Shown piece by piece: positions 6,258 to 42,446 of a stretch of 64,000 nucleotides of DNA. The DNA is from Candidatus Aenigmatarchaeota archaeon (lineage in GTDB: Archaea > Aenigmatarchaeota > Aenigmatarchaeia > CG10238-14 > SCSR01). A program made the translations under genes and the position numbers. The first letter of the stretch is position 1; the number at the start of each line of letters is the position of its first letter. Below the pieces are notes generated by a model. The model was not told the origin of the DNA and did no database searches. It worked only from the letters and a program-made list of their open reading frames with translations. The DNA is taken from assembly GCA_038998335.1 (NCBI GenBank), contig JAVZHQ010000002.1, positions 64,001-128,000 of the forward strand. Direction: 5' to 3'.

Positions 6258-7169
6258 TTACTCTACCTTTTCTTCCATTAATTTTTCTAATTCTTTTACA
6301 CTCTCTATTTCAGGAATTTCTGATTCTAAGATTATTGGCACTTCTTCCACAGATTTTTTTTCACATTTTTTCGCAACAAAAGCACATCTTGAAGAAAAAA
6401 GAAAAGACATTCTTTTAATAGAGATAGCATCTTTCTCTATTTTTTTTGTATTTTTAGAAAGGCTTACTATCATTGAAAATTTTTCTCTTCCAACAATCTC
6501 AAAAGGAGCAGAATAAGTTGGGCTGTTAGTTAAACCTATTCTTGAAAACTCTTTAGAAACTTTTTCTTGAAATTCATTTTTTGGCTTAAGATAGGCTGGT
6601 TCGCAAGCTTTAAGCTTGAAAGGAGATTTTAAATCAACTTTAAGAACTCTTTCCAAACTTCTTACAGTCTCTAAGGAAGGGTTAACTTTTTTGTTCTCTA
6701 TTTCATATAAAGCCTTTTTTGTTACTCCAACTAACTTTGAAAGTTCTTCAAGAGTAAAACCTAATTCTTTCCTTCTGCTTTTCAAAATTTCAGCATCTAT
6801 CGGAACTACGTGCTTTCCTTTTGTAGCTTCTATTTCTGGAACTTCTTCTTCTAGAAATTTTTCAAAAAAATAAGGGGTAATGACCGGTAAGTTAAACCTT
6901 GAATAGATTATTTCTTTTTTCAAGAATTCTCTGTTTGTTTTTAATGAAATTACTAAAGGGTAAGCAGAGAGAAAGTATGAAATTGTTTTTAAGCTTAAGG
7001 CTTGCTCTTTTGTTAGACCATCTATATTGATTAAAGCTTTTATTAGAAGTAAAAACTCTTTTTTTGCTGCTATGTCAAAAGCTCCCTCACTAACCAAAAC
7101 TTGAAATCTACGAGAAAGCAAAGAATTAACTATTTTTTCAATCAAAAAAGATTTATTAAACATTTGCAT
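6258..7169 (-). CDS. Archaeal HTH transcriptional regulator (COG1395-like, central XRE HTH)
   Basis: N-terminal 'FDIAAKK...LLIKALINID' and central Cro/XRE HTH 'RRKELGFTLEELSKLVGVTKKALYEIEN'. Confidence 0.85.
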   Translation of the reverse strand: MQMFNKSFLIEKIVNSLLSRRFQVLVSEGAFDIAAKKEFLLLIKALINIDGLTKEQALSLKTISYFLSAYPLVISLKTNREFLKKEIIYSRFNLPVITPYFFEKFLEEEVPEIEATKGKHVVPIDAEILKSRRKELGFTLEELSKLVGVTKKALYEIENKKVNPSLETVRSLERVLKVDLKSPFKLKACEPAYLKPKNEFQEKVSKEFSRIGLTNSPTYSAPFEIVGREKFSMIVSLSKNTKKIEKDAISIKRMSFLFSSRCAFVAKKCEKKSVEEVPIILESEIPEIESVKELEKLMEEKVE

Positions 7170-7199: not shown

Positions 7200-7223
7200 T
7201 AAATGTGCATGTAAGTATACAAG
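7200..7223. promoter_or_regulatory. Palindromic operator-like motif, copy 2 (TGCAT-N6-ATACA)
   Basis: TAAATGTGCATGTAAGTATACAAG in the divergent gap between the HTH regulator and tRNA-Ile. Confidence 0.55.
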
Positions 7224-7316
7224 GGCCTATAGCTCAGCCTGGTTAGAGCAATCGCCTTATATGGCTCGCTTTCGTGAGAAAGCGATAGGTCGAGGGTTCA
7301 AATCCCTCTAGGCCCA
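7223..7316 (+). tRNA. tRNA-Ile(UAU) with 19-nt intron at 37/38 (7262-7280)
   Basis: Cloverleaf: acceptor GGGCCTA/TAGGCCC, anticodon stem ATCGC/GCGAT, loop CT-TAT-A|A, T-arm GAGGG-TTCAAAT-CCCTC; central helix CTTA/TGAG and 3-nt bulge AA|A. Confidence 0.88.
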
Positions 7317-10906: not shown

Positions 10907-11031
10907 TAGCGGGGGCACGATTTGAACGTGCGACCTTTACCCCAGACTTAAGTCTGTCCGGGTGTCACAAGAGCAGCCTTATGAGCCATTCGCAAAACTT
11001 CGGCGAGCACTCCAGGCTGCTCTACCCCGCT
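10907..11031 (-). tRNA. Initiator tRNA-Met(CAU) with three introns (29/30: 10988-11000; 37/38 or 38/39: about 10964-10979; 43/44: 10937-10957)
   Basis: A1:U72 acceptor AGCGGGG/CCCCGCT; removing 13+16+21 nt gives a 75-nt tRNA with anticodon arm CCGGG-CTCATAA-CCCGG; BHB helices TCGC/GCGA and ACCC/GGGT. Confidence 0.9.
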
Positions 11032-27129: not shown

Positions 27130-27168
27130 TATTTAAGCTTAGTATTAATAATTTTTATAGGTTACGCT

Positions 27169-27253
27169 GCCCCTGTAGTCTAGCCTGGACAGGATAGAAG
27201 CTTGCGGTAAGAGTGAAAAGCTTCTGGCCCGGGTTCGAATCCCGGCAGGGGCA
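27169..27253 (+). tRNA. tRNA-Arg(GCG) with 11-nt intron at 37/38 (27208-27218)
   Basis: GCCCCTG/CAGGGGC acceptor; GAAGC-TT-GCG-G|A-GCTTC; T-arm CCGGG-TTCGAAT-CCCGG. Confidence 0.92.
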
Positions 27254-27282
27254 TTAAAAATTTAAAATACCAGTATTAAAAA

Positions 27283-31784: not shown

Positions 31785-33344
31785 CTATAAAAGTTTTGAG
31801 ACATAAGCTCCTTCTTTTTTATAACCAAGCTTATAGTAATATTTTTTAACACCAGCTCCGCTTATTACCACAATTTTTTTCTTATCAAATTCTTCCTTAG
31901 CAATTCTTTCAGCCTCTTCTAAAAGTCTTCTCCCAAAACCTTTATGTTGAAAAGCCTCTTTCTTAAATTCACCTACAGGAACCAAAGGGCCATAAACATG
32001 GAGCTCTCTTACCAAAGCAGTTTTTTCTGTTATTTCTTTCCTAAAAGGTTTGAAAGGAATTCTTAACCTTAGGAAAGCAATTAAAACATCATTCTTAATA
32101 TCCTCAAAACTTAAAAAAATTTCTTTTCCCTTAGAAGCTAAGTAATCAAGTCTACAAAGTTTTATTTTATTAAAATCGATTTTAACTCCTTTTTCAAGCT
32201 TATGCCCCACTTCTCTATACCTTATTTCTTTTATACTTATCCCAAGTTCTTCTGCTCTTTTCTCCACAAACTCTCTCAAATTACTTTTCTTAACTCCAGC
32301 AACTATGTGGCTTGCTGGTATATCTCTTTGAACCCTTATTATCCTGCAATACTTTGGAATGTACTTTAAAGCTCTTGCTATTAGTTCTATTGCTTCCTTT
32401 TCTTCCAAAGGTCTATACTCACCTTTCTTCCACATTTCATAAAGTTTTGTCCCCTTAATCACAAGAGTAGGGTAAATCTTAAGTGAGTCTGGTCTAAAGT
32501 CAGGGTTTTCAAAAATTTCTTTAAATTGATTTAAATCTTCTTCAAAACTTGTAAACAGGCCTGGCATAACATGCCAAGTAATTTTTAAGCAAGAGTCTTT
32601 TGCTAGTTGCGTTGCTTTAATAACATCTTCTAAAGAATGAATTCTTTGTGCTTTCTTTAAAATTTCCGGATAAATAGACTGAACCCCAATTTCAACTCTT
32701 GTAGTAGCTAGTTTAAGCATTTGATTTATATGCTTCTTAAAACAAAAATCAGGTCTTGTTTCTATGGTTAAACCAGAACACCTTATTCTTCCTTCCTCGT
32801 TTAGTCTTATAGCTTCTTCTAAGTTTTTTGCCTCGCTTCCGTTCAAAGCATCAAAAAGTCTTTTGACAAACCATTCTTGATATTCTTTTTCTAAAGCAAG
32901 AAAGGTTCCACCTATTATTATAAGCTCAACCTTATCGATGCTGTGACCCATTAAACCATACTGATTTATTCTACAATTCACCTGAAGAAAAGGGTCATAA
33001 TTATTCTGTATAGCTCTTTGAATCGCAGGTTCTAAGCCAACGTAGCTTTGTGGTGCATTCTCACCTTTTGGGCAATAAATACATATACCAGGACATTTTG
33101 CAGGTTTAGGTACAACAGTGATAACTGAAACTCCAGAAATTGTTCTTCCTGGTTTCATAACTAAAAAATCTTTAAGCTTTTCCTTTTCTTCTTTTGTGCA
33201 AGCTTGAAGAATTTGAATGCTTGTTGGAATTTTCTTTGCATTATATTTTTTACAAACTCTTTTAACTATTGACCAAGCTTTTTCTCTTGTAAGCTTTTCT
33301 TTTTTTAGTTCCTCGATTATCTCTCTTAGCAGTTTTTCTTCCAT
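31785..33344 (-). CDS. elp3: tRNA uridine(34) acetyltransferase Elp3 (radical SAM plus KAT)
   Basis: 'RTISGV', 'CPGICIYCP', 'ETRPD', 'LKIYPTLV', 'VRELHVYG', 'QHKGFG'. Confidence 0.97.
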   Translation of the reverse strand: MEEKLLREIIEELKKEKLTREKAWSIVKRVCKKYNAKKIPTSIQILQACTKEEKEKLKDFLVMKPGRTISGVSVITVVPKPAKCPGICIYCPKGENAPQSYVGLEPAIQRAIQNNYDPFLQVNCRINQYGLMGHSIDKVELIIIGGTFLALEKEYQEWFVKRLFDALNGSEAKNLEEAIRLNEEGRIRCSGLTIETRPDFCFKKHINQMLKLATTRVEIGVQSIYPEILKKAQRIHSLEDVIKATQLAKDSCLKITWHVMPGLFTSFEEDLNQFKEIFENPDFRPDSLKIYPTLVIKGTKLYEMWKKGEYRPLEEKEAIELIARALKYIPKYCRIIRVQRDIPASHIVAGVKKSNLREFVEKRAEELGISIKEIRYREVGHKLEKGVKIDFNKIKLCRLDYLASKGKEIFLSFEDIKNDVLIAFLRLRIPFKPFRKEITEKTALVRELHVYGPLVPVGEFKKEAFQHKGFGRRLLEEAERIAKEEFDKKKIVVISGAGVKKYYYKLGYKKEGAYVSKLL

Positions 33345-34145: not shown

Positions 34146-34147
34146 AA

Positions 34148-34244
34148 TAGCCCCGAGCGGATTCGAACCGCTGTCACGAGGTTTCTTCCAGGCGACCAGA
34201 GCCTTCTACTCTTTTCGTATGCTTGGCCGCTACACCACGGGGCT
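34148..34244 (-). tRNA. tRNA-Gln(CUG) with two introns (29/30: 34204-34214; 37/38: 34183-34195)
   Basis: AGCCCCG/CGGGGCT acceptor; removing 11+13 nt gives CGAGG-CTCTGGA-CCTCG and a 73-nt tRNA. Confidence 0.88.
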
Positions 34245-34610
34245 ATATGTAATAATTGAATGAGAAAAATTAAAAATGTGACATTCAGAAAAATATTTTA
34301 ATTTATTTTCTTCAAATATTTTTAAGTGAAAGGGATGAAAGGTGAGTTAGAAACAACTTGTAATTTCTTCTTATTCCGATTTGTTTAAAGCTTCTTGTTT
34401 AGTTAATTCTTTACATTTTAGAAAATTCTTGAGCAAAAAAATGCTAAACCTTGTGCTTAAAAACTATAAAAACATAAAAATTATTTCAATGTCAAATTAT
34501 GCGTATCGAAGATGTGATAGAAAAATAATAGAATTAATAGAAAAGCATGGTATAAAATTAATTGTTAGACAAAACTTAGGAAGACCAAGTATGATAGAGA
34601 GGCGAATAAA

Positions 34611-41973: not shown

Positions 41974-42087
41974 CCCCGCTTAGCTCAACGGTAGAGCGAC
42001 CGGCTGTAGGCGAGCGCTTTGGCGCCTGCTAGTAGCCATCGCTCGGTTAATACCGGTAGGTTGGGAGTTCAACTCTCCCAGCGGGGA
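41974..42087 (+). tRNA. tRNA-Tyr(GUA) with 42-nt intron at 37/38 (42010-42051)
   Basis: C1:G72 acceptor CCCCGCT/AGCGGGG; ACCGG-CT-GTA-G|A-CCGGT; intron stem CGAGCG/CGCTCG. Confidence 0.9.
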
Positions 42088-42157: not shown

Positions 42158-42273
42158 GTTGGCGGCCAAAGCGGGGAGGAAACATCTGTTCCCATTCCGA
42201 ACACAGTAATTAAGCTCCCCAGCGATCTGGGTTGTACTTTCCGAAAGGAAGGGAACTCCAGGACGCCGCCAAC
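42158..42273 (+). rRNA. rrf: 5S rRNA
   Basis: 116 nt; terminal helix GTTGGCGGC/GCCGCCAAC; conserved CCCATTCCGAACAC and TAAGC. Confidence 0.93.
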
Positions 42274-42348
42274 AATTTAAATTGGTGTCTGTATTAAAAG
42301 AAAAATAGAGAATGATGACTTTTCCTTAGAATTCAATGAGATAAGAAT

Positions 42349-42434
42349 GCCTCGGTGGTGTAGGGGCCTAATGGATAGGCTAAGCATACGAGCCTGTCAC
42401 GCTCGTGACACGGGTTCAAATCCCGTCCGAGGCG
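42349..42434 (+). tRNA. tRNA-Asp(GUC) with 13-nt D-arm intron at about 21/22 (42371-42383)
   Basis: GCCTCGG/CCGAGGC-G; CGAGC-CTGTCAC-GCTCG; oversized D-loop folds as GGCC[TA|A]T..A GGCT[AA|G]. Confidence 0.9.
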
Positions 42435-42446
42435 TATGGTGAAAAT

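Follow-up and report, generated by a model that had tools for sequence, protein, structure and literature searches.

An intron-containing tRNA-Ile(UAU) gene as the probable AUA decoder of Aenigmatarchaeota, a phylum in which no TiaS is found and where the intron appears to follow the D arm of its own tRNA

Introduction

How does an archaeon in which no TiaS is found read the isoleucine codon AUA, and how is isoleucine kept from AUG positions? The question is raised by a tRNA gene with the anticodon TAT in a 64,000-nt stretch of DNA (the window) from an uncultivated hot-spring Aenigmatarchaeota (DPANN) archaeon. The genome (G000; contigs are given as C1, C2 and C5) is 1.009 Mb in 9 contigs, with 33% G+C, 90.4% completeness and 0.33% contamination.

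UAU-based AUA decoding without TiaS is already published for ARMAN, Nanoarchaeum and Korarchaeum. Fujishima et al. 2011 (PMC3239211) report tRNA-Ile(UAU), and neither tRNA-Ile(CAU) nor TiaS, for ARMAN-2, -4 and -5; in ARMAN-2 the gene has a 25-nt intron at 37/38, and the ARMAN endonuclease is described as cutting pre-tRNA-Ile(UAU) (PMC3239211). N. equitans and K. cryptofilum are likewise reported to have tRNA-Ile3(UAU) without tRNA-Ile2(CAU) (PMC6000648; bioRxiv 10.1101/614032). In the literature that we searched, no paper linked Aenigmatarchaeota with TiaS or agmatidine. An earlier note on this DNA had proposed that the intron of the gene still complements a former CAU anticodon, and thereby marks a change of C34 to U.

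Results and Discussion

A tRNA-Ile(UAU) gene with an intron at position 37/38

Rfam matched RF00005 to 7223-7316 on the plus strand with 65.0 bits (gathering threshold 29, E 7.6e-12), and the alignment covers the full model (positions 1-71) with a single insertion, in the anticodon loop. The parts of the gene, read from the sequence and the Rfam alignment, are:

7223..7316, plus strand: tRNA-Ile(UAU) gene, pre-tRNA of 94 nt (RF00005; read from the sequence)
7223..7261, plus strand: 5' exon, nt 1-37 (sequence and Rfam alignment)
7258..7260, plus strand: anticodon TAT, U34 A35 U36 (sequence, Rfam alignment and contigs)
7262..7280, plus strand: 19-nt intron TGGCTCGCTTTCGTGAGAA at the canonical position 37/38 (sequence and Rfam alignment)
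7275..7278, plus strand: TGAG, intron strand of the BHB central helix with C32-A35 (sequence)
7281..7316, plus strand: 3' exon, nt 38-73, with A38 at 7281 (sequence and Rfam alignment)

The acceptor stem has GGGCCTA, the D arm runs T8 A9 G10 C11 T12 C13 A14 G15 C16, and the anticodon stem is formed by ATCGC (7251-7255) and GCGAT (7282-7286), 5 bp, enclosing a loop of C32 T33 T34 A35 T36 A37 (7256-7261), the 19-nt intron and A38. TGAG occupies n-5 to n-2 of the intron, the canonical place for pairing with nt 32-35; its pairs are C32-G, U33-A, U34.G and A35-U, followed by a 3' bulge of A-A and then A38. The earlier note had described the gene, the anticodon TAT at 7258-7260, the intron and the TGAG pairing with its U-G wobble at position 34, and this description proved correct in every detail.

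For splicing at a bulge-helix-bulge (BHB), helix h (5 bp), a central helix of four pairs and the 3' bulge AA next to A38 are all present, and h' has at best 2 bp, offset, with G-G at i2:i13. Because intron nt 2 cannot pair with n-6, the BHB is relaxed or BHL-like. RNAfold did not predict the splicing-competent BHB for this gene, and across 39 complete UAU tRNA genes the pair probability of U34 with the purine of the motif was ~0. We treat this failure as a probable limit of the method combined with an alternative pairing (see below), and not as evidence against splicing. The genome has a single homologue of the splicing endonuclease EndA, a PF01974 match of 95.1 bits in a 193-aa ORF (C1:649574-649852). 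The interval 7223-7316 is confirmed as a real intron-containing tRNA-Ile(UAU) gene.

For the same interval ARAGORN in bacterial mode gave the anticodons 'tta' and 'aga', which are miscalls caused by the intron. With or without its intron mode this program miscalled many tRNAs and gave no Met tRNA, and the tRNA set of the genome was built instead from the Rfam matches, parsed by hand, and our own cloverleaf scan.

The anticodon and the codon that it would read

The T at 7258 is no artefact of assembly. Two other species of the genus (G001 and G002) have exactly the same 94 nt, and four more genomes are 97-98% identical over the gene, one of them from a different genus of the family and the rest from three additional species of the genus itself. 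Contigs of hot-spring metagenome DNA from the runs X2 and X3, and two from X4, span 7258 without a difference, and these runs come from two studies, neither of which is the probable source study. The earlier note had asked for T7258 to be confirmed in reads, and T is what the contigs of X2, X3 and X4 have, as do G001 and G002. Within the gene the sole variant is a G>A change of the unpaired intron base 7274, seen in a single X4 contig of low depth. Among the 22 runs listed for the locus, hot-spring metagenomes throughout, there was no RNA run.

Some close relatives have additional introns in their tRNA-Ile(UAU) (G003, G004 and G005, loci L005-L007; G013, L009; G022, L008; G023, L016). These lie at 7/8, in the D arm or at 26/27, with the 37/38 intron unchanged, and therefore intron gain has been recent and frequent in the family.

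AUA is far from rare in this organism. The abundance of ATA remarked upon in the earlier note holds for the window, where 735 of the 1526 Ile codons in 49 ORFs are ATA, and it extends to the genome: in 689 long ORFs there are 11,099 ATA, 9,811 ATT and 2,383 ATC codons, so that ATA is the commonest of the three (11,099/23,293, 47.6%) and is used 41.9 times per 1000 codons. To see which residue these codons stand for, we used the protein gene next to the tRNA, which is also discussed below:

6258..7169, minus strand: HTH_3 (COG1395-like) regulator gene, divergent neighbour of the tRNA (Pfam HTH_3, 1.2e-13)

When this gene was compared with five orthologues, its ATA codons (59 instances) were aligned with ATA 47 times, with ATT or ATC 5 times, with GTN 5 times and with ATG and TTG once each, while its ATG was aligned with ATG in 20 of 21 instances. 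The codon counts and the alignment therefore show AUA to be an ordinary, heavily used Ile codon.

These data also bear on the most sceptical view of the locus, namely that it results from an assembly error, is a pseudogene, or encodes a tRNA with a role other than reading AUA as Ile (AUA could mean Met, for example). An error or a pseudogene is hard to reconcile with the same sequence in two other species and in independent contigs, and with an Rfam match that spans the full model. AUA as Met is contradicted by ATA codons that align to Ile and Val codons and only once in 59 to ATG, and by the near-constant match of ATG with ATG. We consider any of these explanations hardly credible.

CAU tRNAs and TiaS

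If AUA were read by a TiaS-dependent tRNA-Ile2, a third tRNA with a CAU anticodon and a tiaS gene should be found, and the earlier note had asked for a search for both. Rfam gave 45 tRNA matches in the genome, many of them with introns at canonical and non-canonical places; about half of the tRNAs have introns. Two CAU tRNAs were identified. One is elongator-like and has a 36-nt intron (C1:405024-405132), and the other, which was missed by Rfam and came from our own cloverleaf scan, lies in the window:

10907..11031 (C2:74907-75031), minus strand: initiator tRNA-Met(CAU) with several introns

The initiator has A1:U72, the sequence AGCGGGG... and the loop CTCATAA, and its anticodon arm is apparently interrupted by three short introns; ARAGORN called it a Lys tRNA with one intron. 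A near-identical multi-intron initiator gene is located near the UAU tRNA in G002 (L001) and in G015 (L017). Rfam and the cloverleaf scan, applied to a 90.4%-complete genome with many intron-disrupted tRNA genes, gave no third CAU tRNA, and the search thus ended with the initiator and the elongator Met tRNAs only. The exons of the UAU tRNA are identical to tRNA-Ile(GAU) of the same genome (C1:220599-220673) at 61 of 75 positions and to the Met-like CAU tRNA at 50 of 75, and the former value suggests that its identity is Ile.

Neither TiaS_FLD (PF08489) nor TiaS_TCKD (PF22641) had a match in the genome, even at E<=1, whereas both were above cut-off in all four archaeal control genomes. TiaS_FLD was over cut-off in 0 of the 41 genomes of the order (40 relatives and the genome studied here). 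It was also the domain used for the phylum-wide search, which covered 274 genomes from 141 genera and 34 families, each at least 80% complete, and the result was 0/274. One sub-threshold TiaS_FLD match (G123, 18.6 bits, with internal stop codons) falls within genes for RNA polymerase subunit B and is spurious. That a tiaS gene or a third CAU tRNA is located in the missing part of the genome is made unlikely by the phylum-wide result.

Spread over the phylum

A strict pattern for the intron-bearing UAU tRNA (CTTATA, 19-49 nt, GGTC NNNN GTTCRAAT) was found in 119 of the 274 genomes, from 21 of the 34 families, and the reversed pattern, used as a control, gave one match. A few of the strict matches are doubtful, since one spans a neighbouring tRNA and some are without a matching 5' stem strand. 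The pattern does not cover UAU tRNAs of other shape, and 155 genomes were without a match. The same 3' pattern without room for an intron was present in four of the 274 genomes.

The gene neighbourhood is conserved as well. When the locus was compared in relatives, as the earlier note had suggested, the UAU tRNA was upstream of the HTH_3 gene and on the opposite strand in all five related loci, one of which encodes a protein of 51% identity. The earlier note had mentioned that tiaS often neighbours the COG1395 regulator; in these relatives, from a phylum in which no TiaS is found, the conserved association is the one between the tRNA and the HTH gene.

Both the UAU tRNA and the absence of TiaS extend over the phylum as a whole, and the trait is old and lineage-wide. 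From 0/274 for TiaS and UAU tRNAs in 21 families it follows that any switch is ancient and predates the phylum. This adds a whole phylum to the archaea that read AUA without agmatidine, and UAU decoding looks like a stable, lineage-wide state and not like the oddity of a single species.

The base opposite U34 appears to follow the D arm

The earlier note had explained the locus by a fairly recent C34-to-U change in a TiaS-dependent tRNA-Ile2(CAU), with TGAG as the surviving complement of CUCA. TGAG would indeed pair perfectly with CUCA, the tRNA body is Ile-like, and a C-to-U origin of UAU tRNAs has been proposed for bacteria (PMC3575796). A recent change is at odds with the phylum-wide distribution of the trait described above, and the intron motif behaves differently from what a relic would require.

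From the pattern matches we extracted 125 anticodon arms, 121 of them intron-bearing. In 31 genes T[AG]AG is at the exact canonical place, and here the base opposite U34 is A in 21 and G in 10. Introns are very different from one family to the next, yet in f1, f5 and f18 members of a single family have either TGAG or TAAG, and G.U is an allowed pair in the helix. As A and G are exchanged freely opposite U34, the base therefore says nothing about a former cytidine.

The "CTCA" of the proposed lost loop is present in the same tRNA, in the D stem:

7233..7236, plus strand: D-stem 5' strand C11 U12 C13 A14 (CTCA), perfect complement of TGAG (sequence)

In this gene only the four-base core matches, and it does so exactly. 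We looked at D-arm nt 13 in 106 distinct genes with a parsed D arm. Of these, 40 are without T[AG]AG, 4 contain both forms and 2 differ from C and U at the D-arm position, and the other 60 enter the comparison:

C13 in the D arm: G in T[G/A]AG in 28 genes, A in 7 genes
U13 in the D arm: G in T[G/A]AG in 1 gene, A in 24 genes

Fisher's test gives 1.6e-9 for this association, a value that ignores relatedness. The complementarity often extends into the flanks: in 40 of 107 genes at least 6 of the 8 flanking positions of the intron window agree with the reverse complement of D-arm nt 8-16, a level reached by shuffled introns in ~9% of cases. Among the 16 genes with at least 7 such matches, the pair of nt 13 with the purine is C-G in 7, U-A in 8 and U.G in 1.

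As judged from these alignments, the G opposite U34 follows C13 of the D arm and appears to owe nothing to a lost C34. Since T[AG]AG is interchangeable in relatives and tracks nt 13, the interpretation of TGAG as a leftover of a CAU anticodon falls away, and we regard a recent C34-to-U change as very unlikely. With this the clue of the intron as a CAU fossil is removed, and it is replaced by a testable covariation of the intron with two exon segments, of which the second is described in the next section.

Many longer introns, in families f2, f3, f4, f8, f13, f24, f26, f27 and f30 (L032-L125), end in a conserved G(C/T)GTA(A/G)A directly before A38. This sequence can pair with U33-U36 in a register shifted by one, which places A opposite U34; the splice-site helix may thus differ between intron classes.

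A second intron-exon pairing and a predicted alternative hairpin

The other exon segment with which the intron covaries is located on the 5' side of the anticodon:

7263..7265, plus strand: intron nt 2-4 (GGC), complementary to G30 C31 C32 at 7254-7256 (covariation in alignment A1; RNAfold MFE)

Alignment A1 consists of 79 distinct UAU tRNA sequences, whose relatedness inflates all of the following pair counts:

32:i2, paired in 70/79: C-G only
31:i3, paired in 77/79: U.G 33, C-G 23, U-A 16, A-U 5
30:i4, paired in 70/79: G-C 66, G.U 4
29:i5, paired in 47/79: six pair types

Over the five pairs from 32:i2 to 28:i6, 76.5% of the cells are paired, compared with 68.3 +/- 1.2 after shuffling (0 of 500 shuffles reach the observed value), and registers in which the intron was slid against the exon have 23-57% of cells paired. 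The three pairs 32:i2 to 30:i4 occur in 0 of the 11 other tRNAs of the genome with an anticodon-loop intron. The minimum free energy fold of the gene by RNAfold includes the helix of i2-i4 with nt 30-32, and in the 39 complete genes the probability of 31:i3 exceeds 0.5 in 23, compared with 3 for the canonical pair 31:39.

From the covariation of i2-i4 together with the D-arm pairing, a nested alternative hairpin with a six-base loop, U33-A37 plus i1, is therefore predicted. This hairpin would be incompatible with the splicing-competent fold and would hide both splice sites. The covariation of i2-i4 with exon nt 30-32 is a new detail, and the hairpin that it predicts is, as far as the compared sequences go, specific to tRNA-Ile(UAU).

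One may ask whether the intron is more than a spacer to be removed. It could be a co-evolving structural partner of the exons, with i2-4(5) paired to exon nt 32-30(29) and T[G/A]AG, often with its flanks, to D-arm nt 11-14 (up to 8-16), and the resulting fold could gate a step at the anticodon before splicing, such as a modification of U34 or a quality check. We think this improbable, but if it is true, archaea would have an equivalent of the control that the yeast intron exerts over pseudouridine 34 versus ncm5U34, and AUG would be avoided in part by this route. We return to this below, together with the other safeguards.

How AUA may be read and AUG spared

Our reading, to which we give a probability of about 85%, is that 7223-7316 is a functional tRNA-Ile(UAU) and the AUA decoder of this organism, with splicing of a BHB by EndA, charging with Ile, and AUG misreading limited by competition, with or without a modification of U34. 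In this scheme the pre-tRNA would fold into the relaxed BHB, with the C32-A35/TGAG helix, the A-A bulge next to A38 and a weak intron-side helix; the EndA homologue would cut it, and the exons would then be ligated. IleRS would charge the tRNA with Ile, and U34 would pair with the A of AUA. Competition with tRNA-Met(CAU) is the most likely restraint on AUG misreading, and a modification of U34, or a property of the ribosome as in Mycoplasma mobile, could act as an added safeguard. That AUA is the commonest Ile codon here sharpens the question of how Ile is kept from AUG positions.

Several observations in other organisms are relevant to the choice of safeguard. As the earlier note had stated, Elp3 is encoded in the window:

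31785..33344, minus strand: Elp3 (radical-SAM/GNAT) gene, candidate U34 modifier (Pfam ELP3_N, Radical_SAM, Radical_SAM_C, GNAT)

Elp3-dependent xm5U would be the best candidate for a modification of U34, a tentative assignment that we place somewhat below even odds. In Haloferax, a C34U variant of tRNA-Ile2 with cnm5U34 is reported to bind AUG as well as AUA and to be a poorer substrate of IleRS (PMC3895270), and therefore an Elp3-type modification alone would not explain the fidelity. For M. mobile the published account is of an unmodified U34, a Trp-to-Arg change in IleRS and a ribosome that itself rejects AUG (PMC3575796). Our best guess is competition with tRNA-Met, combined with an Elp3-type modification of U34 or with none.

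In yeast the intron is described as allowing Pus1 to make pseudouridine 34/36 and as keeping Elongator off U34 (PMC11408192). By this precedent, the conserved intron could control U34 before splicing also in Aenigmatarchaeota, and AUG misreading would be avoided in this way. The intron is kept in 119 genomes as opposed to 4 without, it pairs with the anticodon, and the covariation of i2-4 with exon nt 30-32 is found in this tRNA and in none of the 11 others of the genome. On the other hand, the TruA/Pus1 family (PF01416) has no match in the genome, in a search with 13 of 14 controls positive, nor has the TruD/Pus7 family; among the TruA, TruD and TruB families, the sole pseudouridine synthase seen is of the Cbf5/TruB type. 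Moreover, with introns in about half of the tRNAs retention itself is not special, and four genomes manage with an intron-less gene. Control of U34 by the intron is an unlikely explanation of how AUG is spared.

The Cbf5/TruB_N match (C1:283826-284179, minus strand) contains a single in-frame TGA within a frame of 325 aa, for which a frameshift, an error or a short endonuclease-spliced mRNA intron may be responsible; the cbf5 gene of crenarchaea has a small mRNA intron that is spliced by the endonuclease.

Relation to known systems and origin

The closest parallel is ARMAN-2, -4 and -5 (Micrarchaeota/Parvarchaeota), which are DPANN archaea too and are reported with a UAU anticodon, a 37/38 intron and neither tRNA-Ile(CAU) nor TiaS (PMC3239211). 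The phylum is a different one, the intron is 19 nt and not 25 nt long, and its motif is relaxed where a strict hBHBh' is described for ARMAN (PMC3239211). The endonucleases seem to differ also, as the only domain match here is in a 193-aa ORF, compared with the three-unit epsilon2 enzyme attributed to ARMAN (PMC3239211). With N. equitans and K. cryptofilum the system shares an encoded UAU anticodon that reads AUA and the lack of tRNA-Ile2(CAU), and the Korarchaeum gene is likewise given as intron-bearing (PMC6000648); the difference is one of scale, a gain in single species in what those papers describe and here a whole phylum with TiaS in 0/274 (PMC6000648; bioRxiv 10.1101/614032).

In bacteria, tRNA-Ile2(UAU) of M. 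mobile is a similar case, where the enzyme that modifies C34 has been lost and a UAU anticodon reads AUA (Taniguchi et al. 2013, PMC3575796), but that tRNA is bacterial and is presented as intron-less (PMC3575796). Eukaryotic tRNA-Ile(UAU) resembles the gene studied here in that its 37/38 intron pairs with the anticodon and, by the published account, is almost always retained (PMC11408192). In contrast to eukaryotes, no Pus1/TruA-family gene was found in the genome, and archaea lack a nucleus that could impose an order on the steps. Any link of the archaeal intron to the eukaryotic Pus1 system would be one of analogy only.

The engineered haloarchaeal C34U tRNA-Ile2 shares with the natural gene an archaeal tRNA-Ile body that carries U34 (Mandal et al. 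2014, PMC3895270). There U34 is reported to become cnm5U, with binding in the order AUA > AUG > AUU, slowed growth and poor charging by IleRS (PMC3895270), and the natural system of Aenigmatarchaeota must differ from these mutants in some way.

As to its deep origin, which leaves the present function the same, the UAU tRNA could have come from a duplication of tRNA-Ile1(GAU), with G34 changed to U and an intron gained, as proposed for Korarchaeum. In favor of this are the 61/75 identical exon positions and the shared D loop, variable loop and T arm; likewise, tRNA-Ile(UAU) of K. cryptofilum is reported to have tRNA-Ile(GAU) of that genome as its best match (PMC6000648). Such similarity could instead reflect shared IleRS identity elements, and the comparison was with the GAU and Met-like CAU tRNAs of the same genome. 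We consider this origin plausible, a little short of an even chance.

Other tRNA genes of the genome

Other tRNA genes in the window also have insertions: a Gln(CUG) tRNA with a non-canonical intron (34147-34245, minus strand), an Asp(GUC) tRNA with a D-arm insertion (42348-42435, plus strand), and Arg(GCG) and Tyr(GUA) tRNAs with anticodon-loop introns (27168-27254 and 41974-42087, both plus strand). A 5S rRNA (42158-42274) lies between the Tyr and Asp tRNAs.

A shared intron design is seen in tRNA-Met (C1:405024-405132), Trp (C1:663524-663633), Leu(CAA) (C1:569471-569588), Leu(UAA) (C1:785188-785307) and Cys (C1:371541-371645), in which a loop of 5 nt precedes a 6-nt stretch complementary to nt 32-37, with (T)GATGA-like motifs after it. 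In Trp this pairing may serve a box C/D guide.

Two extra tRNA-Asn(GUU) genes were also observed. One, on a short contig (C5:8886-8958, minus strand), has an atypical acceptor stem, TCCCCGT..., and may be foreign or a contaminant. In the other (C1:653839-653934, minus strand), an insertion separates the acceptor stem from the D arm, and the 5' acceptor strand is duplicated.
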